Shown: piece by piece, positions 8,530 to 64,000 of the stretch
Numbering within the stretch: position 1 is the stretch's first letter
How the letters are laid out: each line of letters begins with the position of its first letter
From: a bacterium
GTDB lineage: Bacteria; 4484-113; JAGGVC01
DNA: 64,000 nt
Direction: 5' to 3'
Assembly: GCA_039961635.1 (NCBI GenBank)
Contig: JABRWB010000012.1
Span: 22,273 to 86,272, forward strand
Made by a program: the position numbers and the translations under genes
The notes under the pieces: model-generated
Database searches by the model: none
What the model was told of the DNA's origin: nothing
The model's input: only the letters and a program-made list of their open reading frames with translations

Positions 8530-8558
8530 TTGACCGCGTTTGCCGCGAGTGCTATACT
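8530..8558 (+). promoter_or_regulatory. Sigma70-like promoter: -35 TTGACC (8530-8535), 17-nt spacer, -10 TATACT (8553-8558), driving the cobalamin riboswitch and btu operon.
   Basis: Near-consensus hexamers with ideal spacing immediately upstream of the riboswitch. Confidence 0.5.
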
Positions 8559-8564
8559 CCTCCC

Positions 8565-8790
8565 GTTCCGTCGGCGGGAAGCCGGTGCAAATCCGGCACG
8601 GACCAGCCACTGTGAGGCGGACTCCCCGGCACTACGCCATTGCCTTCGGGCGAGAAGGCGCCGGGCGGGGTTGAAACCGAGTCAGGAGACCGGGCGGAAA
8701 CTTCAGGGCTTCTCGGAGTAAGCCGCGATGGCTTTCGGCTTTCGCTGTTTCGGCATTGCGATATCTGTATCGGGTGCGCGGCCCGTGCGG
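8565..8790 (+). promoter_or_regulatory. Cobalamin (B12) riboswitch.
   Basis: Conserved core GGGAAGCCGGTGCAAATCCGGCACGGACCAGCCACTGTGA (8575-8615), including the B12 box GCCACTG. Located in the leader of an ABC importer and TonB receptor operon. Confidence 0.75.
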
Positions 8791-9683: not shown

Positions 9684-10713
9684 GAGATACCGCGGACGGC
9701 GGACGGCATACTTTGCGTTTTGCTTCTGGGCGGTTGTGTTCGTCCTGCTGATCGCGCTGCCGTATCTGCGCCAGGCGTACTCGACGTTTTCACGCATACC
9801 CGAAAACAAGAACGCCGGAATCGAATCCCCGGCGGCGAAAAGCGATGCCGAATGGCCTCTGACCAAATTCGACGCACTGGGACGCGAAGTGACATTGGCG
9901 AAACCGCCGGAGCGCATCGTATCGCTCTCTCCCGCGATTACGGAAACGGTATTTGCGCTCGGCGCGGGGGGGAGGCTCGTGGGCCGCTCGGATTTCTGCA
10001 ACTATCCTCCTGAAGTTGCATACATAAAATCAATTGGTGGATTGCTCAACCCGTCGCTTGAAGACATCGTTCTTCTTCAACCGGATCTGGTGTTCGTGCA
10101 GAAGGTCAGCCCGAGGGAAATCGTGGAGAGGCTGGGGGAGGCGGGCGTCGCGGTTTTTGCGGTCGATGAGGCGACATCTCTCAATGGCGTTTTGGAGACG
10201 ATCCGGATAATCGGAATTATGTGCGCAAGCCGCGATAATGCGATTCGGCTTGAATTCGAAAAATCGGCGCTTATGGCGGAGTATAAGTCGCGCAGACGCG
10301 CGCACGCATGGCGCGTGTATTTCGGAGGAGTCGAAGCGCCGTACTACACGGCGGGAGAGGGCACGTTTATAGACGACCTGATTTCACTTGCGGGCGCCAG
10401 GAACATCGCGAGCGGGGAGGGAAGAGAACGGAAATCGTCGCAGGGATGGCCGCAGCTTTCGCCGGAGGAAATAGCCTCCGCGGATCCGGAGGTTATACTC
10501 GTCGGGCATTCTCCGCTCGTCGCGGGGAAAGATGCAACGGATTCCATTCTTTCCGCGGCGCGCAAAAATCCGGCGTTCCGAAACACCTCCGCCGTGAAAT
10601 ACGGACGGATTTGCGTAATAGATCAGGACGAGCTGCTGCGTCCGGGACCGCGCATTTTCAACGCGCTCGAAAAGTTCTCCGCATATCTCGACGGACTGGA
10701 GGATGTCGAGTGA
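9676..10713 (+). CDS. btuF: Periplasmic substrate-binding protein, BtuF/FhuD class (cluster A-2).
   Basis: ATG 9676 preceded by GGAGG; the track start 9577 is a 5' over-extension. N-terminal TM/signal FAFCFWAVVFVLLIAL. PBP motifs IVSLSPAITETVFALGAGGRLVGRSDFCNYP and LQPDLVFV. Overlaps the btuD stop by 8 nt. Confidence 0.85.
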   Translation: MVERYRGRRTAYFAFCFWAVVFVLLIALPYLRQAYSTFSRIPENKNAGIESPAAKSDAEWPLTKFDALGREVTLAKPPERIVSLSPAITETVFALGAGGRLVGRSDFCNYPPEVAYIKSIGGLLNPSLEDIVLLQPDLVFVQKVSPREIVERLGEAGVAVFAVDEATSLNGVLETIRIIGIMCASRDNAIRLEFEKSALMAEYKSRRRAHAWRVYFGGVEAPYYTAGEGTFIDDLISLAGARNIASGEGRERKSSQGWPQLSPEEIASADPEVILVGHSPLVAGKDATDSILSAARKNPAFRNTSAVKYGRICVIDQDELLRPGPRIFNALEKFSAYLDGLEDVE

Positions 10714-49157: not shown

Positions 49158-50189
49158 TCATGCCCCCACCCCCGCGAGCTCGCGGCCGGTTTTTATCGCT
49201 TCGAATCCGTACTTCGCGCGCACCCGGTTGACGCTGCGCTCAAGCGCTTCGCCCTTCACCCGCGACGCGGGAACGAACAGCCTGTCCTGCACGACGAACG
49301 GATAGAACCGCGACGCGGTTATCTCGACCGCGGCCACGTTCACGCGCCGAGTGTGCGCCCGCTCCGCGAGCTCCCGCGACGCGCACAGCATGTCGCACGC
49401 GTACGGCGTAGGCTCGGCCAAAGTCGCGCCCGCGTACCGCCTGCCGCCGTCTATGTAATGCAGCGCGAGGTCCAGCCTGCGCACCGCGCGCATCGCGCCC
49501 TCCCTGTACAGCGCGAACGAAAGCCGGTCGCAGACCACTTCCAGATACGGCGCAAGCCCGTCCGGCGACGAGACGCCGGGCGCGGGGACGGGCATCCGCT
49601 CGACAATCGCCTGCGGCCGCTCGGCCAGCTTCGGCGGAGAGACGTCCCGGCCGCGGCACTGGTGGAACGCTATATGGGCGAACCTGCGGCCGACGAGCAA
49701 ATCCAGGGCGCCGCGCTCAAGCCGCGCCACATCGCCAAGCTGGCGCAATCCGATCCGATGGAGCCGCTCCAAAGCTGGCTCCGGCAAATAAAGCGCGGGG
49801 AGAGGAAGTGGGGCGACCGCTTCGGATTCCGCGCCCGCGGGAACGAGCAGACCGCCGCGGCATTCAGCGCGCCGCCATTTGACGACCAAGCGCGCGACGG
49901 TCGCGTTGGGAGCGAGGCACATCGCGGCCGAGTCCGCGCCGCGCGCGCACGCGTGCTCCAGCGCAACCAGCGCCGCGCGCCCGGCCTCGAACACGTCCGG
50001 ATACACACGTCCGCAGCCGGTGAAGTCGGCCAGCCAGTCGCACCGCGGACGCGGCTCGACCGCGGGCGCGAACCGCCAAAGAAGCGTGCGTCCCGCATCC
50101 GGCCAGAGCGGCGGCCCGTCCATCCCGGCGCCGATCGAATACCAGGCGTACGATCGGGCGGCCGCCTCCGGGTTATCAATACTGAACAC
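49158..50189 (-). CDS. imuB: ImuB-like Y-family polymerase paralog (catalytically degenerate), accessory to DnaE2.
   Basis: Y-family HhH/thumb-like region LPLPALYLPEPALERLHRIGLRQLGDVARLERGALDLLVGRRFAHIAFHQCRGRDVSP resembles the DinB LPVxKLWGVG...LGIxTxGDL segment. The N-terminal region lacks catalytic acidic motifs. Shorter (343 aa) than typical ImuB. Confidence 0.55.
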   Translation of the reverse strand: MFSIDNPEAAARSYAWYSIGAGMDGPPLWPDAGRTLLWRFAPAVEPRPRCDWLADFTGCGRVYPDVFEAGRAALVALEHACARGADSAAMCLAPNATVARLVVKWRRAECRGGLLVPAGAESEAVAPLPLPALYLPEPALERLHRIGLRQLGDVARLERGALDLLVGRRFAHIAFHQCRGRDVSPPKLAERPQAIVERMPVPAPGVSSPDGLAPYLEVVCDRLSFALYREGAMRAVRRLDLALHYIDGGRRYAGATLAEPTPYACDMLCASRELAERAHTRRVNVAAVEITASRFYPFVVQDRLFVPASRVKGEALERSVNRVRAKYGFEAIKTGRELAGVGA

Positions 50190-50234
50190 AAGTATAGTAT
50201 ACTTGTTTTCAGCGAAGAATGCAAGCGGAGGGAG

Positions 50235-50840
50235 TTAGCCGTTGTCCCAGCGCGGCGGCTTGCCGCCCGCGCCGGATAAATCCGATAGATTAACGCGCGT
50301 GACCGGATATGGAACCGGACGGACGTATTCGAATTGGAGCTGGTCCACGTTTTCGCCTTGAACGAAAAGCGAAGACTTGAAAACGCCGACTTGGTTGAAT
50401 CCCAGTTTCGGATAAAGCGGGATGAGCGGATCCCAGCCCGCGGCCGAAGATATCGTCACGCGATCCATACGACAATCGCCGGTCAGGTAGTCACGCGCGA
50501 GCGTCAGCGCTTCGAGCCAAGCTTCTTCGTCGAGCGGAACCGCCGGGTCGGGGTACGGCTTGAGCCGAGCCGCGTTGCGCTGGGCCTGGACTCCCGGAAT
50601 GTGGATGTAACCCAGAGCTTTCATCGTTTCCGCTTCGAAAACGATGAACCACGGGCCTTTCGGCAACTGCCAGTCGTGAGACGGAGCTTCGAATTTGCCT
50701 TCCTTCAATTGTTTTTCGATGTCCGCGGTGCGCACCAATTCCCACTTCTCGCGCCAGACGCACCGGTTGTACAGCCCTGCGACGATTTCCGCGTCCGGCG
50801 ACGCCGCGCCGCGGAGCATTACCTTTTCACCTTTAAGCAT
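50235..50840 (-). CDS. GNAT-family N-acetyltransferase (RimJ/RimL-like).
   Basis: Acetyltransf_3-like pattern (LRGAASPDAEIVAGLYN...FIVFEAETMKALGYIHI...). Start trimmed to an internal ATG to reduce overlap with the upstream GNAT gene; the track start is 50861. Confidence 0.5.
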   Translation of the reverse strand: MLKGEKVMLRGAASPDAEIVAGLYNRCVWREKWELVRTADIEKQLKEGKFEAPSHDWQLPKGPWFIVFEAETMKALGYIHIPGVQAQRNAARLKPYPDPAVPLDEEAWLEALTLARDYLTGDCRMDRVTISSAAGWDPLIPLYPKLGFNQVGVFKSSLFVQGENVDQLQFEYVRPVPYPVTRVNLSDLSGAGGKPPRWDNG

Positions 50841-52011
50841 CGGGAACCTCCCTTGCGCCATACCATTCTTCTCTGGAAACGCCGTATAGCGCCGCGCCCG
50901 AAGGCGGACGGCGGCCTTCCTCGACGCCGGAGAACACGGCCTCGAACCGCAGCCCAGCGCGCAAAAGCGAGCATCGCGCCGCGCGGTTGTATTGGCTCGT
51001 CCCGGCGTAGATGCGGTTTATCGGCCACACGTCGAATCCGTGTCCCATCGCCAGAAGTTTCGCCTCGGTGCCGTAACCTTTTCCGCGGTCCGCGACGTCC
51101 ACAAGCAGCGTGCCTACCTCGGCCTCGCCGTTGCGCTTGTCGTATCCCCACATTCCCACCTGGCCCAGCGGCTTGCCGTCCAGCGTTTCGATGACGAATG
51201 TGTGGTTCGTGTCGCCCCAGAAATCGCCCTCGTCGTACCACTTGTTGTAGTCGTCGAGCGTGCAGATTTCGTGGTCGAGATACGGATACGGCTGCGACCA
51301 AAGGTTGGAGAGAAATATCCCGTCTTCTTTTTCCGTCGGACGTATCGCGATTAGCTTGCCGACAAGCCGCGTCTGCGCTTTTTCGGAATCGGGGACTTCG
51401 CGCGGTTCGACGGGATCGGTGTTGCCGTACAACTTCCAATCGCGCTTCGCCGCCCTGTAGTCCGAGCGCGTCATGCCATAGTTGTAGAAATCACAATACT
51501 TGCCGTGAATGAACCGGATATTGCGAGCGATTCCCTCGCGCTTGAATCCGCACTTTTCGAGCGACCGGATCGCGGGCGCGTTTTCCACATGCGTCGACGC
51601 GGACACGCGCTCGATCCGGAACGCGCGGAAGAGGTAGTCAACGAGCAGCATCTTCGCGCGCGTGCCCGCGCCCGTGCCGCGGTACGCGGCGGAGATTTTC
51701 GTCCCGACTTCGCACTCGCCGGTGACGTCGCGGAAATGCACGCCGATGTCGCCGATCGGAACGGCCGCGCCGTCCCGCTCGATTTCGACGATGAACAACT
51801 TCGTCTTGTCGTCCCAGAAGCCGCCCTTCTCCATCTGCTTCGCGATGAACGAGCGCGGGCACAGGTTCGTACGGTTGTACGCGACCGGCTCGCAATCGTT
51901 CTTCCAGAGGAAATCAACGTCGGAATCCGCGACGGGCCGAAGCCCCACGGTTCCGTCATACAAATCGTACTTGGTCACTTCCTTTCTCCGAATGAAATTA
52001 GTCCCGAACAT
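50833..52011 (-). CDS. Tandem-domain GNAT-family N-acetyltransferase.
   Basis: Two successive GNAT-like halves, each with an LRPV/IRPT start motif and a conserved ...G...G.G-like acetyl-CoA loop (VGTKISAAYRGTGAGTRA; VGTLLVDVADRGKGYGTEA). Confidence 0.6.
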   Translation of the reverse strand: MFGTNFIRRKEVTKYDLYDGTVGLRPVADSDVDFLWKNDCEPVAYNRTNLCPRSFIAKQMEKGGFWDDKTKLFIVEIERDGAAVPIGDIGVHFRDVTGECEVGTKISAAYRGTGAGTRAKMLLVDYLFRAFRIERVSASTHVENAPAIRSLEKCGFKREGIARNIRFIHGKYCDFYNYGMTRSDYRAAKRDWKLYGNTDPVEPREVPDSEKAQTRLVGKLIAIRPTEKEDGIFLSNLWSQPYPYLDHEICTLDDYNKWYDEGDFWGDTNHTFVIETLDGKPLGQVGMWGYDKRNGEAEVGTLLVDVADRGKGYGTEAKLLAMGHGFDVWPINRIYAGTSQYNRAARCSLLRAGLRFEAVFSGVEEGRRPPSGAALYGVSREEWYGAREVPDA

Positions 52012-52025
52012 AAATGAATCCGGGC

Positions 52026-52052
52026 AAAAAAAAACCCTCCGTTGCCGGAGGG
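52026..52052 (-). terminator. Orphan rho-independent terminator (minus-strand orientation) upstream of the GNAT operon.
   Basis: A9 run (52026-52034), then CCCTCCG-ttgc-CGGAGGG (52035-52052). On the minus strand this reads hairpin plus U9. No annotated minus-strand gene ends here. Confidence 0.5.
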
Positions 52053-52302
52053 CGGAACCTGGCCTGCGCGCAAGCGCCTAGCCGGACGGGCCGCCCCCTG
52101 GGATTGGGAGAACCGGGAGAACGATGCTGTAAGAGTGCGGGAAAACAGGGCAGGGCGCGGCCGCGGGCCGCTTCGGGATGCAAAGCGCAAAATTCATCAA
52201 GCCGTCCTCCTTTGGATGGATTTCCCCGGTGATGCGGTCAGCCCGCATGCCGTGGATTGCGCATTTTACCCCAGATCGCGGGAAATGCAACAGAAAAAAG
52301 TA

Positions 52303-52377
52303 GCCGAGTTGAGAGTTGCCGAGTTGTGAGTTGCCGATTTGTGAGTTGCCGAGTTGTGAGTTGCCGAGTCGAGGGTT
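52303..52377. repeat. Tandem direct repeat, 5 copies of a 15-nt unit (GCCGAGTTGTGAGTT consensus).
   Basis: GCCGAGTTGAGAGTT / GCCGAGTTGTGAGTT / GCCGATTTGTGAGTT / GCCGAGTTGTGAGTT / GCCGAGTCGAGGGTT, read directly; located in a 630-bp intergenic region. Confidence 0.8.
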
Positions 52378-52800
52378 GGAAACAATATCTACAAGGAGCC
52401 GAGGCTTCAGCCTCGGCGGAACGCAATGGAAACCGTGGCAAGTGCAAGGCAAGCCAATCCGAGGAGCGCCGCCCCCAATGGCTGCAAATCAAATGCCTCC
52501 ATATTGGCAGCTATGCAATTCCGCGAACCAAATGCCGGAATCCGGGTCTATAATGACGGCGATGGGGATTTTCCAGCGGGACGAATACGGGCCGATCATC
52601 TCGCCGCGCCGCCGCGCTCCGATTAACGGGTATTCCGGTACCCGAATGTGGATGCGCGCAAATTCCGCGCCAGTGGTACCTTACAAAAGCGCGTAATAGG
52701 GACTCAAGCGGGGTATAATACCAGCGAGCGGTCACCTTCCCGGAGGTTGGTGCAACTTGTCGGGAACACGCCGATTGGTTTTGCACATTGGAGAAAGGAT

Positions 52801-54483
52801 GTGAAAAGGGAGCTTTCGCAACGGTCGTTAATCGGGCCGTTATTTTTTTGTTTGCTTGCTGCGCTCGCGCTGTTAGCTGCGCTTGCCGGATGCGCCGGTT
52901 ATTCTCATCAGAAATACGCACGAGCCGGACACTCGACGCCTCTGTCCGCCGCGCTGGCCGAAATCCGCAACGCCGCGCCTCCCCAAGGCGCAGATCCCGC
53001 GGTTTTCGATTCGCTCAAGCTGCAGCTTGAATCCGAACTAGCCGCGCGCTACGGCGACACCGGACGAATCCCGTCTCGAACCGGAAGCCGGGTTGAAGAT
53101 TTGAGCTACGATACGGGCACGGGATTCATCATTTGGACGTACGTAAACGCGGCGGATTACGACGCGAACGGCGAGACGAGCATCTCGGATGTCACCCCGA
53201 TCGCGCTGAACTGGCAGGCGATTTGCGACGACGGAATAGGCGACGACGCTCACGAATCCTGGATAGACGGCGATCATTCGAACGAAGTGGGGATTTCCGA
53301 CGTGACTCCCATCGCGCTCAATTGGCAGTCCACAGTCGCCGAGTACATAGTCTTTGCTGCCGATGATGAGGCGGGGCCGTTCACCGAAGTCGCCAGAGTG
53401 CCGTTCGGAGATGTTATCGACAGCTGGCCGCCGCACTTCGAGCTGGAATGGCAGCCAGCTTGGGGCGATTATGGCGCGGTTCAGCCCGCGGACGGCGAAG
53501 GCAACACTGGCGAGATGAGCAACGTGGTGGCCATCGGCGGCGCGCTTAAGGATATCGAAATCATGGAGCCGTCCATCACCGCTACGGCGCTTGTGGACAC
53601 CGAAATTCAAAGGACGATCCGCGTAAGAAACAACACGGACGGTCCGATCGACTGGTCGCTCGACCTGACCGGCGCGTTCCTCGCGGCGGATCCCGCATCG
53701 GACACGACAGGCGCGCATTCGATTACCCAGGTGACCGTGACGCTTTCGGCAGTCGGCCTGCTTCCGGGCGTGTACAACGGCGGAATCGCGCTGGATTCGA
53801 TTGCGGGATTCGACAGCTGCCCCGTGTTTTTCACCGTCAACGAATTCGGCGCGGTCGTCAGCATTTTGGAGGATTCGATTTCCGCGACCGCGCCGGAGGA
53901 CGGCTCGGACTCCGAGGTATTCACCCTAAGGAACGACGGAAATATCGACCTTGACTGGGAGGCGTTCGCGGACGATCCGTGGATTACCTTCGATCCCTCA
54001 TCCGGCACTCTGGGCGCCGGGCTTGAAGTTCAGATTACCGCCGATTTCTCGGCCGCGGGAATGCAGGAAGGCGAATACGATTCGACGATCACGGTCGAGG
54101 AATCCGGCAATCCGGCGAACGCGGACTCTTGCGAGGCGCAATTTACGGTGACCACAGGCGGAGTTCCGGTTCTCGACCGCCTGACCGTGGACGGCGCGAC
54201 CGGCGGTTCGGGGACGCAGGCCGACCCGTGGGTGTTCCCAGTGGGCACGACCGCAGTCCAGTTCCACGCGTGGGACACCGACGACAACGAAATCACGGAG
54301 CATCCTTCGATGCTGTTCGATTTCGGAGCGGGCGTTTCGCCCAGCCCGGCCACCGGATGGAGCGTGTCGACAGCCGGAAACTTGATATGGGGCGAATTCG
54401 ATTCGTTAATCGAAGTAACCGGTCAGTACGACGGGTGGCCCGATCCTGCGATGAGTTATTGGATATACAAGGCTCCGTTTTAA
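52801..54483 (+). CDS. Secreted lipoprotein with an N-terminal dockerin-like module (paralogous to the N-terminus of the 4432..8469 protein) and Ig-like domains.
   Basis: Probable GTG start 52801 (SD GGAGAAAGG), giving VKRELSQRSLIGPLFFCLLAALALLAALAGC (lipobox). Dockerin-like ADYDANGETSISDVTPIALNWQ / IDGDHSNEVGISDVTPIALNWQ. N-terminal region PQGADPAVFDSLKLQLESELAARYGDTG parallels PQDADPQTFDILRAKLIEFVTS of the 4432 protein. The track start 52648 is probably an over-extension. Confidence 0.65.
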   Translation: MKRELSQRSLIGPLFFCLLAALALLAALAGCAGYSHQKYARAGHSTPLSAALAEIRNAAPPQGADPAVFDSLKLQLESELAARYGDTGRIPSRTGSRVEDLSYDTGTGFIIWTYVNAADYDANGETSISDVTPIALNWQAICDDGIGDDAHESWIDGDHSNEVGISDVTPIALNWQSTVAEYIVFAADDEAGPFTEVARVPFGDVIDSWPPHFELEWQPAWGDYGAVQPADGEGNTGEMSNVVAIGGALKDIEIMEPSITATALVDTEIQRTIRVRNNTDGPIDWSLDLTGAFLAADPASDTTGAHSITQVTVTLSAVGLLPGVYNGGIALDSIAGFDSCPVFFTVNEFGAVVSILEDSISATAPEDGSDSEVFTLRNDGNIDLDWEAFADDPWITFDPSSGTLGAGLEVQITADFSAAGMQEGEYDSTITVEESGNPANADSCEAQFTVTTGGVPVLDRLTVDGATGGSGTQADPWVFPVGTTAVQFHAWDTDDNEITEHPSMLFDFGAGVSPSPATGWSVSTAGNLIWGEFDSLIEVTGQYDGWPDPAMSYWIYKAPF

Positions 54484-54550
54484 ACGGCCGGCAAATTATC
54501 TCGTCAACCTTGATTTTTTCCGGAGCCGGAACCGGAAGAAATAAACCGGC

Positions 54551-57500
54551 ATGGAGTTTGAAATGGCGAAAAGGAATCTGATTGCTGTTGTCGTGCTCGT
54601 GCTTGCGTTTGCGATGTACGCCTGTGGAGGCGGCAGGAAGCTAAGCTCTCCCGCTCCTATTCCGTCCGGCCCAGTCTCCGACCAACAGGCAGGCGGCTCC
54701 GACAATACGGTTGGCTCGCTCTCGGATGCGCTGAAGGCAATCGTGGATTACGAAAACTCGCAGACCGCGATGCAGGCCGCGCGGGATGCCGCCCGCAAGC
54801 CGAGCGCCGTGCCGAATACGCTTCTTGGCGACGAGGAGTGGATGAAAGGCCCGACGATGAACAACTATGAAGAGGATTTCGATTCGCACACCCTTACGGC
54901 GATAAGCGATTCCTCCGATATCGAAGACGTCGGATTTTTGGGCTTCGCCGTGTACAGGTTCGACGGGCATGCCGCCGATACCGATCTTTCCCTCGCCGCA
55001 GAAATAGAGCCTGCGCCGGGAAGCTCCTTTTACATTTACGTGGTGAGCTGGGATGGACCGCCAAGATGGATAAGCTTCGGTCCGTTTTTTGAAAATCCAG
55101 GTCCGCCGGATTGGCCGATCGAATTCGCGTTCGACGCGGTTTCGCCAACCGGCAGCATTTACGTCGGGATTGCGGTTTACGCCGAAAGCGAAGCGACAAC
55201 CTGGTCGTTTACTGTGGATTCCACCGGAGGTGCATCAAGTCCTCCATTCGCGGATATTCAGGCCAATCCAAAGTCGGGAGATCCGCCGCTAAATGTTTCG
55301 TTTGATGCCGGAAACAGCTACGACCCTGACGGAGGGGCGATAACGTTATTCGAGTGGGATTTCGAAGGCGACGGCGTTTACGACGAATCTGGCGCATCAT
55401 GGACGGCTTCCCACATTTACAACGCGCCGGGCGTTTATGCCGCAACTGTTCGAGTAACGGACGACGAAGGGGAAAAGGACACAGCGCACACGATTGTGCG
55501 CGCGGGAGCGAATCCGTATTACGAAACGGAGGACAACGACGACCTTCCGCAGGCGAACGCGCTGCCTGCGTTCGACTTCTCGGGCAACACGGTGTCCGGC
55601 TCCATCGGCAACGACGATCCCGAAGGCAATTACCCGGGCTACGACGGGGACAGTTCGGATGCGTTTTCTTTTGCCATAACCGAGGCCAGCACGGTTTCGC
55701 TGACAATTCTGTATGACTGGGAAACCTGCGGGCTTGGATTCGACGTGTACGACGAAATGTGGAATTATTACGGCGGCGGCAATGGCGACAACGGTATCGC
55801 ATTCGCCGAAGTGGGATTGACAAATCCAGGCACTTACTACGTTTGGTTATACAGTTGGTGGGGATACAGCGATTACATAATCACCGGCTCGCGCGTGTCG
55901 GGGGTCAAACCGGTTGCAGATATCGTGGCTGAACCTTCGTCCGGCGAGGCACCGCTTGACGTTCAATTGGACGCCGGTGCAAGTTATGATCCCGACGGCG
56001 GCTCCATCGTCAAGTACGAATGGGATTTCGAAGGCGACGGAATTTATGACGAAGATACCGGCGGTACGCCCATAACCAACCACATTTATGCGGACGATGG
56101 ATTTTATCTTGCGACCGTCCGGGTAACTGACGACGAAGGCGCAGCCGCAACCGACTCCGCTCTTGTATATGTTGGAACTCCGTTTTACGAAGTTGAAGAC
56201 AACGAGGAGTTTTACCAGGCAACACCGCTTCCGGCATTTCCTTTCCCGGCTCCGCTTGTGAACGGCAGCGTAGGTTCAAGTTTGGATTATCCGGGTTACG
56301 ACGGCGATTACTACGATGTATTTTCGTTTGCAACAACAGAGGCAGGCGCTGTTGAATTCCTGCTTACATACGGCACCGACTATGGTACGGCATATTTCGA
56401 CATTTACGACGGGGATTGGAATTATTACGGCGGCTCTTGGGACGGCGACGGAGACGGTTACCTGGTGGTGTATTTAGACAATCCCAATACCTACTATATT
56501 TCGGTTGGGATGAACACGGGCGAATGGACCGAATACGAATTGGAAGGGGCGTTTTATCCGGGCCAGCTTCCAGTCGCCGACATAGTCGCAGCGCCCGCAT
56601 ACGGCGATCCGCCGCTCGACGTGGATTTTGACGCGGCCGCAAGCTACGATCCCGACGGAGGAGCCATCGTCAAATACGAATGGGATTTCGACGGCGACGG
56701 GGTTTGGGACGAGGACACGGGGGGCAGTCCGGTTGCTTCGCACCAATACACGTCCGAAGGTGTGTATGTCGCGGCGGTCCGCGTGACCGACGACGAGGGC
56801 GCGCCGGATATAGACACCAAGGTGATAGTTGTCGGCAATCCGCAGTATTTCGAAATCGAGGATAACGATTGGATGGATGAAGCCAATCCGTTGCCCGATT
56901 TGCCGTTCCCGTCGCCCTTGGTCAACGGCAGCATAGGCTGGGGCAGCGGCTATGATGGTTACGACGGCGATACAGAAGACTTCTTTAGTTTCGAAACCGA
57001 TGAATCCGGAAGCATTAATCTCTTTATCGAATTCGAGCAAATGACCGCACCGAACACCGAAGCCTACGTAATCAACTCAAATGAAGACTGGATCGCAGGA
57101 GATTACGACAGGGACGGCGACGGAGACATAGAGCTTCAGGCGTTCCTGCCGGATCCGGGCAAATACTATATAGCGGTTTTCAACAGTGGTTTTGAGGAAT
57201 TCTCTGATTACGAAATAACGGCGGAATTAATCCCAGGCGATCCGCCCGTAGCGGATTTCACAGCCGATCCGATCTGGGGCTCGCCTCCGCTGGCGGTGGA
57301 TTTTGACGCTTCCGCAAGCTACGACCCGGACGGAGGCCCGATTGTCAATTACATGTGGGATTACGACGGGGACGGCATTTACGATGAAGAATCGCCCGGC
57401 GATCCGACGATATCCCATTCGTACGATGACGCGGGGATTTATAACGCGACGCTCAAAGTGATTGACGAGGAGGGCGCGTATACCTCGGCCAGCATTAGAA

Positions 57501-57883
57501 TAATCGTCGGGCCGTTTTACGAAACCGAGGACAACGACGACTCGACGGAAGCGGACGCGCTTCCGGCATTCCCGTTCTATTCGGATACGGTGACCGGCAA
57601 TTTGGGAGCCGGCGGATACAACGGAGACAACGAGGATTGGTTTGAATTCGAGATTACAGATCCCGGCGAAATTTACTTTTACATCGAATACAACTTCAAT
57701 CTCGCCAACCTGCAGGTGGAGATTTTCGACTCATCGCTAAACCAAATCTACTCTTCCTATATGGACGGCGATTACGAGGAGATAGATTACTGGCTGGATT
57801 CACCCGGCACTTATTACCTGCGCTGTTTCGTCAACTCCGGTCAGACGAACTACGTGATGTCCGGCGAATTCTGGAGCTGGTAG
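54551..57883 (+). CDS. Giant lipoprotein with four tandem PKD plus pre-peptidase C-terminal (PPC) domain pairs.
   Basis: Lipobox VVLVLAFAMYACGGG. Four PKD units (PPLNVSFDAGNSYDPDGGAITLFEWDFEGDGVYDE...; APLDVQLDAGASYDPDGGSIVKYEWDFEGDGIYDE; PPLDVDFDAAASYDPDGGAIVKYEWDFDGDGVWDE; PPLAVDFDASASYDPDGGPIVNYMWDYDGDGIYDE), each followed by a PPC-like unit (YYETEDNDD...A..LPAF.F...V.G..G...Y.GYDGD..D.FSF). Repeat period is about 660-670 bp. Confidence 0.75.
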   Translation: MEFEMAKRNLIAVVVLVLAFAMYACGGGRKLSSPAPIPSGPVSDQQAGGSDNTVGSLSDALKAIVDYENSQTAMQAARDAARKPSAVPNTLLGDEEWMKGPTMNNYEEDFDSHTLTAISDSSDIEDVGFLGFAVYRFDGHAADTDLSLAAEIEPAPGSSFYIYVVSWDGPPRWISFGPFFENPGPPDWPIEFAFDAVSPTGSIYVGIAVYAESEATTWSFTVDSTGGASSPPFADIQANPKSGDPPLNVSFDAGNSYDPDGGAITLFEWDFEGDGVYDESGASWTASHIYNAPGVYAATVRVTDDEGEKDTAHTIVRAGANPYYETEDNDDLPQANALPAFDFSGNTVSGSIGNDDPEGNYPGYDGDSSDAFSFAITEASTVSLTILYDWETCGLGFDVYDEMWNYYGGGNGDNGIAFAEVGLTNPGTYYVWLYSWWGYSDYIITGSRVSGVKPVADIVAEPSSGEAPLDVQLDAGASYDPDGGSIVKYEWDFEGDGIYDEDTGGTPITNHIYADDGFYLATVRVTDDEGAAATDSALVYVGTPFYEVEDNEEFYQATPLPAFPFPAPLVNGSVGSSLDYPGYDGDYYDVFSFATTEAGAVEFLLTYGTDYGTAYFDIYDGDWNYYGGSWDGDGDGYLVVYLDNPNTYYISVGMNTGEWTEYELEGAFYPGQLPVADIVAAPAYGDPPLDVDFDAAASYDPDGGAIVKYEWDFDGDGVWDEDTGGSPVASHQYTSEGVYVAAVRVTDDEGAPDIDTKVIVVGNPQYFEIEDNDWMDEANPLPDLPFPSPLVNGSIGWGSGYDGYDGDTEDFFSFETDESGSINLFIEFEQMTAPNTEAYVINSNEDWIAGDYDRDGDGDIELQAFLPDPGKYYIAVFNSGFEEFSDYEITAELIPGDPPVADFTADPIWGSPPLAVDFDASASYDPDGGPIVNYMWDYDGDGIYDEESPGDPTISHSYDDAGIYNATLKVIDEEGAYTSASIRIIVGPFYETEDNDDSTEADALPAFPFYSDTVTGNLGAGGYNGDNEDWFEFEITDPGEIYFYIEYNFNLANLQVEIFDSSLNQIYSSYMDGDYEEIDYWLDSPGTYYLRCFVNSGQTNYVMSGEFWSW

Positions 57884-57941
57884 CCTCCGCTCCCGCTCGA
57901 TTAGGTTTCAGTAAGGGAGCTTGCGTTTTCGGAATAACCGG

Positions 57942-58358
57942 CTATTCCTTCTGTCCGAACGCGGTGTTGCCGATTATGTAAAGCTTTCCGCGGTCGCCGA
58001 AGACGTGAAGGTTGTAATTCACCTGCTGCTCGTCGCGGAAGATGCGCTCGTAGTAGACCATCCCGACCGATGCAGCGGGATCGAAGTTGCGGCTGCCGGT
58101 GTCCGCAATCGGCTTTTTCGTGTACGGATTCTCCGGCCATTTTTCGTTCGGAAGAAGATATTGTTTTACCTGCTCCAGCGACTCCGGATACTCGGCGACG
58201 TCGCGGAAGTATTCGTCGATAAGCCGGGAAATGCGCTTCGCTCCCTTCATCATCTCGTAGTCCTTGCCCACGAACTCACCCGGCCGTTTGGGGCAGGAAA
58301 GGAGCGGCAGCAATAAGCAGATAATCAAAACTGCAAAAGCCAAATTCGACAGCTTCAT
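57942..58358 (-). CDS. Hypothetical small lipoprotein.
   Basis: MKLSNLAFAVLIICLLLPLLSC lipobox. Lower GC than the flanks. No domain recognised. Confidence 0.5.
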   Translation of the reverse strand: MKLSNLAFAVLIICLLLPLLSCPKRPGEFVGKDYEMMKGAKRISRLIDEYFRDVAEYPESLEQVKQYLLPNEKWPENPYTKKPIADTGSRNFDPAASVGMVYYERIFRDEQQVNYNLHVFGDRGKLYIIGNTAFGQKE

Positions 58359-58434
58359 CTTGTCACCCCCATCTTTGATGAAGTGCGGGACGGAATAGTT
58401 CCGTCATAATCCTGTTTTATCGCGCGCTGTAAGA

Positions 58435-59595
58435 TTATCCCAGCGCGCACTCGTTTTTGCCGCCTTCCAGGATGTCCGCTTCCATTTCGGACACCTTGAA
58501 CAGGCCGGCGTTTATTCCCTTAATCTGCCTGTAAGCTTCAGGGGGATTGGAGATGCGGCTTTCGACCCATTCGAAAAACGCATCGGGATCTGAAACCGAC
58601 AGGTGTGCGTTGCCAGATTTTATTTCGCCGAATGTGCGCCAGATTGTCCTGTCCTCGTTTCGCTCCGATTCCGAACCGTAGTGTGCGGGCAGAACGCGCA
58701 GCCCTTCCGGCCACTCCCGCTTCGCGCGATCGATGCTCGCGAGCAAATCCTCGCTCCAGTCCCGCGTCTTTCCCGCCAGGTCCGGGCGCCCGATGGATGC
58801 GATAAACATAAAATCGCCCGTGAACGCGCCATCGCCTGCAACGAAACAAGTGCTCCCTTCGGTGTGCCCCGGAGTATGAATCGCGCGCACGATCCCGTTT
58901 CCGACCTTGATTTCGAATCCGTCCGAGAGCGGAGCAATATCCAGTTTGCCCGGCGTGCCGTCGTACGGGTACGCGTTGTCCGCCGGATGCAGGTAGTACG
59001 GAATCCCCAGCTTCGCCGCGAGCGCGGGCGCGCCGCTGATGTAATCCGCATGAACGTGCGTGTCCGCGACCGCAATTATCCGTGCGCCCGATTCCCCCGC
59101 GGCTTTTTCGATTTCGCCAAACTCGCGCGGAATGTCTATCGCAAGCGCCTCTCCGCCGGATATCAGCAGGTATGCAAGCGAGCCTTTCGCGATCCGGTCG
59201 AACTGGAGCAGCCGGTCGAATCCATCCGGCGGAGCTATTTCGCGGGCGACAAGCACGTGGTTCCACGCCGCCATCCCGCCCGAAAGCGACACCGCATCGA
59301 ATCCGCATTCGCACAGGTGCATCGCGACGCGCATGCTGTCGTGACCGCGCCCGCACACCGTCACGACGGGGAGCGAGCGGTCCAGCCCCGCTGCGGACGG
59401 ATCGTCCATTTCGACCACCTGCGAGCCGCGCACGTTTACGAACCGCGCGGGGGGCGCGACGTCCACCTTGCCAGCGGCCAGCCGCTCCGGCGCGCGCACG
59501 TCAAGCACCTGCAGCGCGGCGCCTCCCTCGATGCGCGCCGCCAATTCCGCCGGCGCGATTTCCATTCCGTTACCCAATTGCGGCTGGTGCGGCAT
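58435..59595 (-). CDS. Rhodanese-domain / metallo-beta-lactamase-fold fusion protein (persulfide dioxygenase-like).
   Basis: N-terminal rhodanese (…VTVCGRGHDSMRVAMHLCECGFDAVSLSGGMAAWN). MBL fold motifs ADTHVHADYISG...HTPGHTEGS...D. Start chosen at internal ATG 59595 (MPHQPQ...); ATG 59670 and ATG 59565 are alternatives. Confidence 0.7.
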   Translation of the reverse strand: MPHQPQLGNGMEIAPAELAARIEGGAALQVLDVRAPERLAAGKVDVAPPARFVNVRGSQVVEMDDPSAAGLDRSLPVVTVCGRGHDSMRVAMHLCECGFDAVSLSGGMAAWNHVLVAREIAPPDGFDRLLQFDRIAKGSLAYLLISGGEALAIDIPREFGEIEKAAGESGARIIAVADTHVHADYISGAPALAAKLGIPYYLHPADNAYPYDGTPGKLDIAPLSDGFEIKVGNGIVRAIHTPGHTEGSTCFVAGDGAFTGDFMFIASIGRPDLAGKTRDWSEDLLASIDRAKREWPEGLRVLPAHYGSESERNEDRTIWRTFGEIKSGNAHLSVSDPDAFFEWVESRISNPPEAYRQIKGINAGLFKVSEMEADILEGGKNECALG

Positions 59596-59625
59596 ACCCT
59601 TCCCCTGAAACGGAGGTGAAAATGA

Positions 59626-59814
59626 AGATACGAATTGTACCGCGGCGAAGAGGCGAAAATCGAAAGGCAAAAGCCATGGCGGCGCGATCCGGACGGCAAC
59701 GGCGTGGAGCTGTACTGGGACAAGCCAAAGGAGGAATGGCCGCGCGACGCGGAGGGGAATATCGAGATGTACACGCGGCCGGCGGATTTGGGGCGGGAGT
59801 TGGGGAGAAGTTGA
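59626..59814 (+). pseudogene. Remnant (C-terminal about 45 aa) of a VOC/glyoxalase-family gene.
   Basis: A reading frame with no M start but a strongly protein-like translation ...KPWRRDPDGNGVELYWDKPKEEWPRDAEGNIEMYTRPADLGRELGRS* matching the conserved C-terminus of VOC-family proteins (FRDPDGNxIELYWDRP...W...M.T.PLDL). Preceded by an in-frame stop at 59623. Confidence 0.4.
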
Positions 59815-59823
59815 AGTGCCAGT

Positions 59824-60216
59824 TTAGGTTTGGTCTTTGATAACTGTCGAAGCCCAGGCAAAAACGGCTTCCGCCAATTCAATCGCCTCAGCCAAATCCT
59901 GCTCGGTCGCATCTCTGTCCGGGCCCGGATACCTTAATGTCGTGGCGTAGTCGGTTAGGGAAAACGCGGCTGCAAGTTCCGCCGGGAATTCGGTGAATTC
60001 GGCTACTTTCCCTGCCAACGCTTCAATATCGTGTACCCAGGGAGGTTCCACGCCGAAGGATAAAATTACGGCTTTCAGCGATTTCTCCACGCACTGGTGA
60101 GCGCCGTTGCACAGCTCCTCGATGCAAACGCCCTCGGGGCGTTCCACCTTGGCTAGATTCAGATTGCTGCGAGCGATAACAAGCCAATCCGCTGGCGAGC
60201 CGGATTCAGGATTCAT
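59824..60216 (-). CDS. hepT: HEPN-domain toxin (HepT-like) of a type VII toxin-antitoxin pair.
   Basis: 130-aa HEPN-like protein. Overlaps the upstream MNT gene by 11 nt. Confidence 0.75.
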   Translation of the reverse strand: MNPESGSPADWLVIARSNLNLAKVERPEGVCIEELCNGAHQCVEKSLKAVILSFGVEPPWVHDIEALAGKVAEFTEFPAELAAAFSLTDYATTLRYPGPDRDATEQDLAEAIELAEAVFAWASTVIKDQT

Positions 60217-60589
60217 ATACGGTTTTGCCCTCGCGAAGAATCGTGCGGTAAATCAAGCCGATATTATCCGCATACTTTGCAAGCTCGCTGACCGTCGTAA
60301 CCAGGATGTCCTTAGCGGCGCCGCCGCCTTCCACGACTCTATAAAGGTGCCTTGCCGTTTTTCGCCGCGGCGTCCCGTCCGGCATGACGACTAGCAGGTC
60401 GAAGTCGCTGTCCGGCCCCATCTCTCCCCGCGCCGCCGAGCCGAAGAGGATTATCCTGACGGGATGCACCGCCTCGACGATCTGGCTTACCAGGCTGTCG
60501 AGCTGCGCGGAAAAGTCTGCTTTGGTCGCGGTTGACACCGTGAAAATTATACCGCACGGCGCGAGTACGCGCCGCCGGTTGCGCTTCAC
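60206..60589 (-). CDS. mntA: Minimal nucleotidyltransferase antitoxin (MntA-like).
   Basis: Pol-beta-type NTase motif ILFGSAARGEMGPDSDFDLLVV. 127 aa. Upstream of and overlapping the HEPN gene. Confidence 0.8.
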   Translation of the reverse strand: MKRNRRRVLAPCGIIFTVSTATKADFSAQLDSLVSQIVEAVHPVRIILFGSAARGEMGPDSDFDLLVVMPDGTPRRKTARHLYRVVEGGGAAKDILVTTVSELAKYADNIGLIYRTILREGKTVYES

Positions 60590-60656
60590 CGCCGCGTGGC
60601 AAATGCGTAAACCGCCAATTCACAATCACGGATGAACATTCACAATCGTCGCCTGC

Positions 60657-61361
60657 ATGATCGCGATTACCTTGCTTGCGTCCCCCGAAAAAGCGCGGAC
60701 TTGGCCCGTGCAGACGGTCAGGGTTTTTCCGGCGTTCTCCACTTTGCCCGTCGCCAGGAACCGCTCGCCGGCAGCCGGGCGCATGAAGTTGATCTTGAAC
60801 TCCGCCGAAACGACCTCGCAGCCGGGAGAGCTTCTGGCCCAGGACGCGTTTTACGTGGGATACCTGAAAGGGGTGGGCAAGGTTTATCTTCAGGCGGTTG
60901 TGGATACTTACGGGAGCTACGCCTTCGGCTTTCTGCACACCGGCAAGCTTCCCGTCTGCAGCGTTGCGGTGCTCCACAACGACGTGCTTCCGCAGTACAG
61001 GAAGTGGCGCGTCCCGGTGAAGGCTGTTCTCACCGACAACGGCCGGGAGTTCTGCGGAACGGACAACCATCCGTTCGAGCTCTACCTGGCCCTGAACGAC
61101 ATCGAGCACAAGAGAACCAAAGTGAGGCGGCCGCAGAGCAACGGCTTCGTGGAGAGATTCAACCGCACGGTGCTGGACGAATTCTTCCGCCTGAAATTCC
61201 GGGAGCGCTTCTACGAATCGGTGGATTCACTGCAAAGGGACCTGAACGAATGGCTGATCTTTTACAACAACGAGCGTCCACACCATGGCTACCGCAACAT
61301 GGGAAAACGCCCGATCGACACCATTAACGAATTCCAAAAGAGCGTTAGACAAGATGGTTAG
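60657..61361 (+). mobile_element. 5'-truncated IS481-family (DDE, rve) transposase remnant.
   Basis: rve core PGELLAQDAFYVG...LQAVVDTYGSYAF...LTDNGREFCG...RRPQSNGFVERFNRTVLDEFF...YNNERPHHGYRNMGKRP is complete. The N-terminal HTH region (about 100-150 aa) is absent and the upstream sequence is occupied by the MNT gene. Ends 14 nt from the tmRNA 3' end. Confidence 0.7.
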
Positions 61362-61375
61362 TGGTACAAACACAA

Positions 61376-61720
61376 TGGAGGTGGGGGGAATCGAACCCCC
61401 GTCCGAACGGGCACCCGGGACGGCGTCTACGGCGGTAGTCTGCGGATTAATCTTAACGCCCTTCGGAAGCCGCAAACGACACCTCCGGGCGGGCAGCCCT
61501 TAATCTTTCGCGGATGCCGGGCGTTCTCCGCGGCATCCCCTGGATCTGGCCGCGCATCCGAGCCCCAGGGGCCCGGCGCGGTGCGCGGTCGTCGCTATGT
61601 TAAGCGGCGAGAGCGAAATCGCGGTTGGCGATTATGTTTTGCTGGGGTTGTTGACCCGGCGTCCAGCCGCCGGGCGTCGCAGCCGATCGTGCATCCCATC
61701 CGTCGAATCCATACACCCCC
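61376..61720 (-). ncRNA. ssrA: Transfer-messenger RNA (tmRNA, ssrA).
   Basis: Minus-strand 5' end GGGGGTGTATGGATTCGACGG... (complement of 61720 downward). Tag ORF ...GCCAACCGCGATTTCGCTCTCGCCGCTTAA = ANRDFALAA* (around 61601-61630). 3' tRNA-like end GGACGGGGGTTCGATTCCCCCCACCTCCA with encoded CCA (complement of 61376-61378). Confidence 0.85.
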
Positions 61721-62156
61721 ATGTAAATGTGCAGGCGCGGGACAGGGCGGAAAAGCGCGCCCTCCACGCGGACACATTATACCCCGGTTTCGTCAAGTTT
61801 GAATGGGAGCCGGCAAAAAGGAGAATGGCCGGGACGAGCCGGCCCGTAATCCAAGCAGGAAATATACCCCCTATCTCCAGATCGGGGTAAGGTAGGTCTC
61901 TACGCCGCTCAAGAGAGCGGCGGTATATGTTTCAAAGGTTGATTCGGTGAACGTTGCTCTGAAGACCGGCGGCGTATATGGCAAAAGTTGATGAATTGAA
62001 CGCCGGCATCGAGATCGACCGTATATTATGTTATCAATTCCCGCTCGTTACATCTCTCACAAGCCCGCAATTCAGGTATATCAGTACCAGAATACCGATA
62101 TAAACATGCGGGTGCCAGGGAACGGCGCCCGTTGTTTGATTCCAAGGAGGAACATC

Positions 62157-62897
62157 GTGAACAACACAATCGACTTTAATCTTACCGTAGGCGAAATCGT
62201 GGCCGAGCGCATAGGACGCAGCCGCGTCCTGGAAAGCTACGGACTAGACTATTGCTGCGGCGGCGGAACACCGTTCGCGGACGCCTGCGCGGCGAAAGGA
62301 CTGGATCCCGACGAGGTCGCCGCGGCGATCGCCGAATCCGATGCCGCGCCCGCGGCGGGCGAGGACGACGGGGCGGACTACCGCAGCATGCCGCTTTCGC
62401 GTCTGTGCGACCACATCGAGGAAACGCACCACGTATTCATGAAGCGTGAGGTGCCGCGGCTGACCGAGCTTCTGGACAAAACGTTCAAGGCGCACGGCGA
62501 GAACCATCCGGAGCTTGCGCAGGTGGTGCGCGTATATGCGGGGCTGCGCGCCGAAATAGAAGCTCACTTGTTGAAGGAAGAACAGGTGCTTTTCCCGTTC
62601 ATCCGCCAGATGGAAGCGACCGGCGGGGTGCCGCAGTTCCATTGCGGAAGTCTTCAGGCGCCGATTGGCGTGATGCTGCAGGAGCACGACAACGCAGGCG
62701 ACGCGCTGCGCAAGCTGAGCGAACTGACGAACGGCTACGCTGTGCCGGAGGACGCCTGCAGCACTTACCGCGCCGCGCTTGACGGGCTGCGGGAGATGGA
62801 ACTCGACCTGCACCTGCACATCCACAAGGAGAACAACATCCTCTTCCCGCGGGCGCTGGAGGAGGAGCAGATTCGGTACGAAACGGCGGCGGGCTAG
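62157..62897 (+). CDS. ytfE: Iron-sulfur cluster repair di-iron protein (RIC/YtfE/ScdA family).
   Basis: GTG 62157 with perfect SD AAGGAGG 6 nt upstream. ScdA_N motif LDYCCGGG, then a hemerythrin-like H/E cation-binding region (HH..E...LFP). The track start 62028 is an over-extension. Confidence 0.8.
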   Translation: MNNTIDFNLTVGEIVAERIGRSRVLESYGLDYCCGGGTPFADACAAKGLDPDEVAAAIAESDAAPAAGEDDGADYRSMPLSRLCDHIEETHHVFMKREVPRLTELLDKTFKAHGENHPELAQVVRVYAGLRAEIEAHLLKEEQVLFPFIRQMEATGGVPQFHCGSLQAPIGVMLQEHDNAGDALRKLSELTNGYAVPEDACSTYRAALDGLREMELDLHLHIHKENNILFPRALEEEQIRYETAAG

Positions 62898-62937
62898 CCC
62901 GAAGCGGAATGCAAAAGGAGCAATTCAAAAGGGTGCG

Positions 62938-63591
62938 TCAGGCGCCCTTTATTTTTGCATTTACAATCATCACCGCGGTGGCGAGTTCCGCGTTGGAAGG
63001 GAAGCGGAGCTGCCCGTTCTGGTAAATGCTCCTCGCGTCGGTGTAGTAGCCGTAGTATTCCCATATCGAGCCGCCGACAAGAAAGTATGCGGGATTCTTC
63101 TCATCCAGGCCCAAATCGCGCCTGGTGCTAGTCACCTGCGCCGCGACGTCGCCGCGCGCCGCGCCCGTAACCGGCCCGTCGAAGCTGCCGGAACGTATCG
63201 CGCCGTACTGGTTCATGTCGCGCTCGGCCTTGAGCTTGTCCTGGAATTTCTTCAGCAGGATAGCCCACGTGCCGTTCTTTTTCGGCAGCTTGGAGCGGTC
63301 GCCGGAAACCAGTCCGGAAGTGATTTTCACGGTTTTCGACTCGCCGATCTTGTAAAGCTTGTCGTCCAGCAGAACGATTGCGGCATTTGCGCCCGCAACC
63401 GTTTTGATGGTGTCGTCGAGGCGCACAGGCATGCCAAGCTCGGCGTCCACGCCAGCAACCTTTACGTTCCCGTTGAAACTGACGACGAACGCGAGTATCT
63501 CCTTTTCCGCGGAAAAGGCCAGGGGCGCGTGAAAAACCGCGGACGCGTAAACGAGCAGTCCGCCGACTGCAGTCAGAATCAATCGAAACAT
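62938..63591 (-). CDS. Secreted FecR-domain-like protein, downstream of the adenylate/guanylate cyclase gene.
   Basis: Signal peptide MFRLILTAVGGLLVYASAVFHAPLAFSA. Segment GNVKVAGVDAELGMPVRLDDTIKTVAGANAAIVLLDDKLYKIGESKTVKI resembles the FecR/DUF4974 beta-sandwich. Assignment is weak. Confidence 0.4.
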   Translation of the reverse strand: MFRLILTAVGGLLVYASAVFHAPLAFSAEKEILAFVVSFNGNVKVAGVDAELGMPVRLDDTIKTVAGANAAIVLLDDKLYKIGESKTVKITSGLVSGDRSKLPKKNGTWAILLKKFQDKLKAERDMNQYGAIRSGSFDGPVTGAARGDVAAQVTSTRRDLGLDEKNPAYFLVGGSIWEYYGYYTDARSIYQNGQLRFPSNAELATAVMIVNAKIKGA

Positions 63592-63654
63592 GGTGTCCTC
63601 CGGGACAAGACATGCGAATTATACCCGCAAGAGGGGCGCGATTTTCGGGGAGCG

Positions 63655-64000
63655 TCAGATGCCGAGTTCTTTGTCCGCCCTGCCGTTCATCGCGCGCGCG
63701 CGTGAGCCGGCGCCCGACAGCTCGCCGACCCGGTAAATCACGACCGGTTGCGAGCGGCCGCGCACCGTGAAGCTGCCGATTTCGGAAAGCTCTGCGATTC
63801 CGTCCAGATCGGCCTTGGTTTCCTGGGTCACCACCACGGCGACGCCCTGGCGTTTCGCCTCCTCGACAATCCGCTGGCAAACGTTGACCGCGTCGCCTAT
63901 CACGGTGTATTCCATCCTTTGCGGGGAGCCGATGTTACCGACGCTCGCCGGCCCGGTGTGAACGCCGATGGTCGCGCCGAAATTTTCGACGCCGTAGCGC
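63655..64000 (-). CDS. Class III adenylate/guanylate cyclase catalytic domain (C-terminal part; the gene start lies beyond the window end).
   Basis: The minus strand reads ...[61 protein letters not shown]..., the canonical CYTH-unrelated class III cyclase core (GxHxGP...G...YTxxGDxVNxAxRL). The track shows only the internal-Met fragment 63655..63915. Confidence 0.75.

Follow-up and report, generated by a model that had tools for sequence, protein, structure and literature searches.

The gene for transfer-messenger RNA (tmRNA), ssrA, is a frequent integration site, and the islands lodged there are often of atypical composition and can erode beyond recognition (PMC3146451, PMC11915505); how, then, is a mobile-element gene lying immediately 3' of ssrA to be read? 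The question is raised by a bacterial stretch of 64,000 nucleotides (GTDB lineage Bacteria; 4484-113; JAGGVC01; assembly GCA_039961635.1, contig JABRWB010000012.1, positions 22,273 to 86,272), hereafter called the window. Between its ssrA gene and a gene for a rhodanese-metallo-beta-lactamase (MBL) protein lie 1.78 kb of DNA that carry part of an insertion sequence (IS) of the IS481 family, remnants of a PaaI-like thioesterase gene and of a VOC/glyoxalase-family gene, and an overlapping pair of genes for a minimal nucleotidyltransferase (MNT) and a HEPN protein, a putative toxin-antitoxin (TA) pair. An initial annotation of the window described this interval as a decayed genomic island. We consider it probable that the interval is a scar to which one transposition and two or more illegitimate deletions gave rise, leaving the TA pair in place, and that no integrase-borne island can be recognised in it.

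The IS481-family fragment at the 3' end of ssrA

The two detection tools by which the initial annotation proposed to check its tmRNA call both support it. ARAGORN places the single tmRNA gene of the window at 61376-61720 on the minus strand with the tag ANRDFALAA, as annotated, and the Rfam covariance model RF00023 covers 61373-61720 over its full length (model positions 1-374; 130.1 bits, E = 1.4e-50, gathering score 47). Judged from its sequence, ssrA is untouched by the neighbouring events and keeps a predicted promoter-like site upstream.

The mobile element next to it was delimited against full-length relatives. The truncated transposase of the window falls into one 90% cluster with a 357-aa protein, P0258, encoded on two JGI contigs from related metagenomes (L019 and L020; 1139 and 1138 bp), and blastn aligned window positions 60816-61368 without gaps to positions 586-1138 of these contigs at 95.7% identity; to the left of 60816 the homology collapses, with 19 of 26 bases mismatched. 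Both contigs read as the complete element: they start with TGTACAACTAGCC and end with GGTTAGTAGTACA, forming 22-bp imperfect inverted repeats with TGTAC...GTACA ends, and the transposase stop codon falls within the right inverted repeat. In the window this right repeat is whole and ends in GTACA at 61368, 7 nt from the 3' end of ssrA. The transposase stop codon occupies 61359-61361, leaving a gap at 61362-61375 up to the ARAGORN end of ssrA, which is the 14-nt distance originally reported.

The truncated transposase matches Pfam rve and rve_3 and aligns to profile positions 125-283 of the 284 in the NCBIfam IS481 model NF033577 (E = 5.5e-47); its score of 160.6 lies below the full-length cut-off of 224, a shortfall attributed solely to the missing N-terminal half. 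The catalytic D, D and E columns, invariant in the family, are all present, whereas residues 1-175 of P0258 are absent, and thus the description of an IS481-like DDE transposase with an intact catalytic core and no N-terminal helix-turn-helix (HTH) stands. What the window holds is not a complete IS481 element, the left inverted repeat, the HTH half and the left copy of the target duplication all being absent; with the first two of these gone, this copy would be unable to transpose alone.

With the ISSod13-like group of the IS481 family the element has in common one DDE transposase, built of an N-terminal HTH and an rve/rve_3 core, short imperfect inverted repeats whose first bases are TGT, and a short duplication of the target (7 bp in the relative described below); protein identity is 65-76% to many metagenomic copies and 67% to a Cereibacter protein named ISSod13 transposase. 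It differs in that the window retains only the right 553 of 1138 bp, without the left inverted repeat and the HTH half, and in that this fragment is 4.3% divergent from the full-length copy of the related metagenomes. The codons that differ between the window and the full-length IS comprise 17 synonymous and 5 non-synonymous changes, and we therefore take the two copies to have diverged as functional elements; no frame-disrupting decay was seen in the fragment. The differences from L020 are unevenly distributed, with 11 in the first 63 nt (60816-60878) and 13 in the remaining 490 nt (60879-61368), most of them synonymous, and may stem from a history of mosaic formation or gene conversion between IS copies.

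At the protein level a further relative of the IS (L012:5539-6691) is 76% identical; its ends are of the same type, with a 7-bp target duplication, GTTTATA, on either side. Since L012 makes a 7-bp duplication and exactly 7 nt separate the IS end from ssrA in the window, we infer that the element targeted the T-rich 7-mer that immediately follows ssrA. This spacer (61369-61375) reads TTGTGTT on the ssrA strand; the same place after ssrA reads TTTTTTT in L014, a metagenomic contig (JAANMV010000339.1) that was found by a degenerate pattern for the tag-coding region and is the sole relative of the locus found. As a separate observation, two overlapping open reading frames (ORFs) share the L012 transposase between them, one for the HTH (120 aa) and the other for the rve portion (227 aa), and many database homologues of the IS transposase are only 180-230 aa long. 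These split and short forms suggest one of two things: frequent frameshift or decay, or else a programmed frameshift in this IS group.

Gene remnants and deletion junctions

The ORF initially annotated as the transposase (60657-61361) is a composite, in that its first ~53 codons are not transposase. On the opposite strand of that part lies a thioesterase remnant that the initial annotation overlooked and that, as the alignments place it, the IS fragment abuts directly. The proposal that the TA pair fills the space of the missing transposase N-terminus thus gives way to a head-on fusion of the IS fragment with the thioesterase remnant. The remnant aligns to residues 79-137 of the 141 in PDB 3e1e (E = 2.9e-10), to positions 28-75 of 79 in PF03061 (31.3 bits, above the gathering score) and to positions 58-114 of 117 in TIGR00369, and is 70-78% identical to metagenomic thioesterases. 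About 75 N-terminal codons are absent, including the HGG/DSACGY region conserved in homologues, which leaves the hotdog domain (~140 aa) incomplete. The context of the closest thioesterase homologue on a long contig (P0245) contains no MNT/HEPN, VOC or ssrA gene, and the thioesterase block is therefore not a conserved cassette.

Where the two truncated genes meet, both parents carry CCCGG, which reads Pro-Gly in each gene on opposite strands. The IS and thioesterase homologies overlap at this pentanucleotide, which is the signature of an illegitimate deletion at microhomology.

The second truncated gene lies on the far side of the TA pair, its stop 9 nt from that of the HEPN gene. The initial annotation had likened this frame to the C-terminus of a VOC/glyoxalase protein, and tblastn against 7.3 Gb of plasmids substantiated the assignment: 67 records matched, and the listed matches fall under genes annotated VOC or glyoxalase, with up to 64% identity and E-values down to 5e-10. 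Reciprocally, two full-length VOC proteins (168 and 171 aa) align by their C-terminus only (residues 126/128-169), and in the window only at 59677-59802 (E = 4e-13). About 125 N-terminal codons are absent, so that the paired beta-alpha-beta-beta-beta modules (~170 aa) are incomplete. The homology begins at ~59677-59686, 80-110 nt from the start of the oppositely directed rhodanese-MBL gene, and this proximity leads us to propose that a second deletion took the VOC 5' part. Searches of the window and of contigs L001, L006 and L014 recovered none of the missing halves of the IS, the thioesterase and the VOC gene.

That the two frames are chance similarities in non-coding DNA is a notion that the VOC frame might invite, as it has no match in Pfam, NCBIfam or PDB sequence searches. 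Such an origin is scarcely credible given the plasmid matches, the single spot at which full-length VOC proteins hit the window, and a thioesterase match that exceeds the Pfam gathering score and is accompanied by a solved structure and close homologues; on the sequence searches, this reading is already refuted.

One short-read contig of 1223 bp (L002, from SRR32934022) stops exactly at 59686, where the VOC homology starts with the D of DPDGNG. A second sequence that shares this 30-mer, for example an intact VOC gene, is hinted at in SRR32934022; no other arrangement around the VOC remnant was found by protein look-up.

The junctions themselves are reproduced in Logan short-read contigs of other samples, which match the window with 100% identity at 49824-60908 and 61333-64000. 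These contigs leave the central 424 bp of the IS unbridged, and one might suppose that the assembly joined two loci through the repeated IS, the truncated IS and thioesterase then not lying by ssrA at all, and a full-length IS perhaps standing there. The contig ends at 60908 and 61333 match exactly the 30-mers bounded by the mismatches between the window and L020 at 60878 and 61363; a k=31 assembly graph would break at such shared 30-mers if a full-length IS of the L020 type, sharing stretches of at least 30 bases, occurred in the same samples, and the presence of such a copy there also speaks in favour of an artefact. Against a collapse onto L020, the window copy has 12 differences of its own from L020 across the unbridged part, and the reading frame is continuous through the IS fragment. 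L014 likewise has the rhodanese-MBL gene a few kilobases downstream of ssrA in the same orientation, which is to be expected of flanks that are genuine neighbours, and all four contigs that carry the MBL gene are arranged as in the window. Among all contigs with the exact MBL or HEPN protein the arrangement is shared, and no strain variant with an intact VOC gene or another order was found. We regard an assembly artefact as very improbable.

A four-step history would account for these features, whose coordinates are collected in Table 1. The insertion is shown: a 1138-bp IS481-family element entered the DNA directly 3' of ssrA, presumably at the T-rich 7-mer and with a 7-bp target duplication. 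At the junction observed at CCCGG, a deletion by microhomology would then have cost the IS its left 585 bp, with the left inverted repeat and the HTH half, and taken along an intervening stretch of DNA and the first ~75 codons of the thioesterase gene. At the other junction, a second deletion would have taken the first ~125 VOC codons and brought the region upstream of rhodanese-MBL beside the remnant. Between the two remnants the MNT-HEPN operon would have been spared, loss of the pair being counter-selected.

Table 1. Features of the interval between ssrA and the rhodanese-MBL gene and of its flanks (window coordinates; a dot marks features without strand).
Feature	Position	Strand	Basis
Rhodanese-MBL gene, native flank	58435..59595	-	Pfam; 70% protein identity to L014 11786-12916
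VOC/glyoxalase-family gene, C-terminal ~44 codons + stop, convergent with HEPN	59677..59814	+	tblastn
HEPN (PF05168, HEPN-T type), putative toxin	59824..60216	-	PF05168 E 6e-21, 75.2 bits
MNT, putative antitoxin, GSX10DXD = GSAARGEMGPDSDFD	60206..60589	-	PF01909 E 6e-12, PF18765
PaaI-like hotdog (4HBT) thioesterase, C-terminal ~65 codons + stop	60626..60826	-	PDB 3e1e, PF03061, TIGR00369
Putative deletion junction, IS interior / thioesterase interior, CCCGG in both parents	60816..60832	.	IS homology from 60816, thioesterase (PGCEVV) to 60826
Right 553 bp of 1138-bp IS481-family IS; transposase residues 176-357 (DDE core), intact right inverted repeat	60816..61368	+	blastn vs L019/L020, NF033577
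7-nt spacer AACACAA, IS right end to ssrA 3' end; putative right copy of target-site duplication	61369..61375	.	IS end mapped vs L019/L020
ssrA (tmRNA), complete, tag ANRDFALAA, 3' CCA not encoded	61373..61720	-	ARAGORN + Rfam RF00023
Predicted promoter-like site TTCAAA-16-TATAAT, ~55 nt upstream of ssrA	61776..61803	-	consensus scan, 10/12 positions
ScdA/RIC di-iron protein gene, native flank, ssrA 5' side	62157..62897	+	Pfam; same ssrA neighbour in L014

The MNT-HEPN pair between the junctions

The spared pair consists of two intact genes, the start of the HEPN gene overlapping the stop of the MNT gene by 11 nt. For MNT, an alternative GTG start at 60538 gives a protein of 110 aa, the form used in the NCBI annotation; a perfect TATAAT stands at 60546-60551 on the minus strand, 7 nt upstream of this GTG, and may be the TA promoter, the thioesterase gene upstream now being without its own 5' end. 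The closest solved structures are PDB 1WOT for MNT and Thermus TT1696 (PDB 1UFB) for HEPN. Relatives of the HEPN protein numbered 1892 among the 1.84 billion representatives searched (the best 62% identical), and in an alignment of 40 sequences (39 relatives) it keeps all seven invariant columns (Q41, E44, K48, H62, L87, Y96 and W121) as well as the nearly invariant ones. The idea that the toxin might be inactive, suggested by a Phe at the Arg position of the Rx6H motif of TT1696, was rejected on the same alignment, in which the subfamily shows no conservation at that position and no invariant residue is missing from the window protein.

The initial annotation assigned the pair to the HepT/MntA type. 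HepT/MntA proper combines a PF01934 (DUF86) toxin bearing RX4HXY with a PF01909 antitoxin bearing GSX10DXD (PMC7641770), whereas PF05168 defines the HEPN-T class; in known MNT-HEPN dyads the MNT gene is 5' and HEPN is the toxin (PMC3710099). The likeness of the window pair to the type VII HepT/MntA systems lies in the PF01909 MNT with GSX10DXD, encoded 5' of and overlapping the HEPN gene, and in a HEPN protein that keeps the conserved Tyr (of an RYP motif) and the conserved His. The toxin itself differs: PF05168 was its sole Pfam match, with no PF01934/DUF86 and no NCBIfam match, and it has no RX4HXY, its conserved H62 and the RY motif R95-Y96 being 33 residues apart, while MNT reached 29.8 bits with the NCBIfam MntA model, far short of the cut-off of 60. 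PADLOC gave no match for HEPN and, for MNT, only candidate PDC-S09 models. An intact MNT-HEPN pair was thus correctly recognised, but its toxin belongs to PF05168 and is not HepT. Given the MNT-first gene order and the overlap, the pair is predicted to be a functional TA module of the HEPN-T type, in which MNT probably neutralises HEPN. A type VII system has, by definition, a growth-inhibiting HEPN protein that AMPylation by MNT neutralises.

Certain chromosomal TA loci guard adjacent DNA against deletion, as in studies of superintegron and chromosomal TA stabilisation. Like such loci, the pair here stands intact between two junctions, within ~40 nt of the operon on the thioesterase side and ~10 nt on the VOC side; it differs in being a single case, and the pattern could be coincidence. 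That both deletions stop just outside the pair would be explained if its loss were counter-selected, and the suggestion in the initial annotation that the pair stabilises the remnant is plausible.

The island question and what the locus means

The flanks of the interval are native. L014 carries the same two neighbours: its tmRNA carries an identical tag, with 78.5% identity to the window's ssrA, the ScdA gene lies on its 5' side, and the rhodanese-MBL gene follows 6.85 kb downstream of ssrA in the same relative orientation. The comparison with relatives proposed by the initial annotation could be made on L014, which has other DNA in the interval: none of the five elements of the window is there, and the sequence between ssrA and MBL is entirely different, although the relative is distant. 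The interval is thus variable in the lineage. Directly 3' of ssrA in L014 lies an AT-rich segment of 1.1 kb (L014:4935-6050; 32-45% G+C versus ~57%) that encodes a HARE-HTH protein of 300 aa, and beyond it come a gene for a 174-aa protein and two for PKD-repeat proteins before the MBL gene is reached; the 13 kb of L014 contain no integrase and no ssrA/att-like repeat. Among GTDB species genomes, a scan for the rhodanese-MBL protein brought up no close relative; its best hits (52%, Ignavibacteriota; 42%, Eisenbacteria) have no ssrA nearby, and the closest ScdA homologues (61-68% identity) stand in contexts without a tmRNA gene.

Other features of the window were recorded alongside. A PKD-domain protein of 1110 aa with four internal repeats of ~666 nt is encoded at 54551-57883 (+); in L014, by comparison, PKD proteins are encoded across the MBL gene from there and in the reverse orientation, which implies a rearrangement. 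A cobalamin riboswitch (RF00174, 85.5 bits) is present at 8547-8712 (+), and five head-to-tail copies of a 15-nt unit (AGTTGCCGAGTTGTG-like) occupy 52284-52378.

Could the interval be what is left of a classical island that entered ssrA at its 3' end by means of a tyrosine or serine recombinase of its own and has since lost its integrase, its distal att site and most of its cargo? The record of ssrA as an integration site whose islands can vanish beyond recognition would allow it, and the interval is wholly unlike that of L014, where the AT-rich, foreign-looking HARE-HTH gene adjoins ssrA. TA modules and accessory enzymes are common as island cargo. The hallmarks of an island are absent, however. 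A direct repeat matching the 3' end of ssrA, which the initial annotation proposed to look for as attL/attR, occurs nowhere in the window: the last 48 nt of ssrA have no repeat there, whether searched as 17- and 20-mers with up to 2-3 mismatches or as a 33-mer with up to three, and all that turned up were three 14-mers at chance level, each with one mismatch and inside coding DNA, one of them at 9817 with unrelated flanks. For the genes of the 11 kb downstream of ssrA, the part of the window scanned gene by gene, the precomputed Pfam list gives no recombinase domain. The composition is that of the genomic background (G+C 0.576 for 59596-61368 versus 0.586 for the whole window). What follows ssrA first is the T-rich 7-nt spacer, as in L014, and then the end of an IS, not island DNA; and the one mobile-element gene to be found there encodes part of the DDE transposase of a multicopy IS rather than an integrase. 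We therefore consider an island origin unlikely, and the genomic-island call of the initial annotation is not upheld. Its account of successive insertion and erosion at ssrA is supported in part: both took place at the 3' flank of the gene, as seen in an IS fragment with an intact right end and in two truncated genes on either side of an intact TA pair. The locus does resemble the described ssrA islands (the Dehalococcoides ssrA-GIs, PMC3146451, and Islander-type islands, PMC11915505) in having variable, partly foreign DNA directly 3' of a single-copy tmRNA gene, with content that differs between relatives; it differs from them in that the interval is only 1.8 kb and in that the DDE IS sits outside the gene and not in the T-arm or acceptor sublocations used by integrases.

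Several points weigh against the account of one insertion followed by deletions. The order and number of the deletions are read from the junctions alone. A mobile element that has since lost its signatures could itself have brought in the thioesterase, TA and VOC genes. The comparison draws on one relative (ssrA 78.5%, MBL 70% protein identity), which is too distant to give the ancestral interval. The middle of the IS (60909-61332) is without independent short-read contigs, so that the link between the flanks comes from the source assembly and from synteny with L014. Finally, the HEPN-T subfamily is without the RX4HXY motif of the characterised HepT toxins, and toxicity and neutralisation are here predicted. 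With these points taken into account, transposition and deletion remain, in our judgement, the probable origin of the interval.

A more general possibility is that the T-rich 7 nt after the tmRNA gene act as an integrase-independent insertion hot spot in this uncultivated lineage, targeted here by the IS481 element, and that the flank gathers and erodes cargo while the MNT-HEPN anchor limits deletions. It is suggested by the would-be target duplication abutting the last nucleotide of ssrA and by the unrelated foreign DNA (HARE-HTH) at the same boundary in L014; we put it forward as a doubtful idea.

Taken together, the locus is ordinary transposon-insertion and deletion debris, and the description given in the initial annotation is confirmed and refined. 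It shows that a mobile gene next to ssrA is insufficient for an island call, the gene here being a truncated multicopy IS with the hallmarks of an island absent. For annotation, the gains are precise pseudogene boundaries for the IS fragment, the thioesterase remnant and the VOC remnant, a TA classification corrected from HepT to HEPN-T, and the definition of the whole IS of 1138 bp, inverted repeats and 7-bp duplication included, which can serve for repeat masking in this lineage of metagenome-assembled genomes. Beyond annotation the significance is small; in an established concept, the intact TA pair between two deletion scars adds one case that illustrates the persistence of TA modules.

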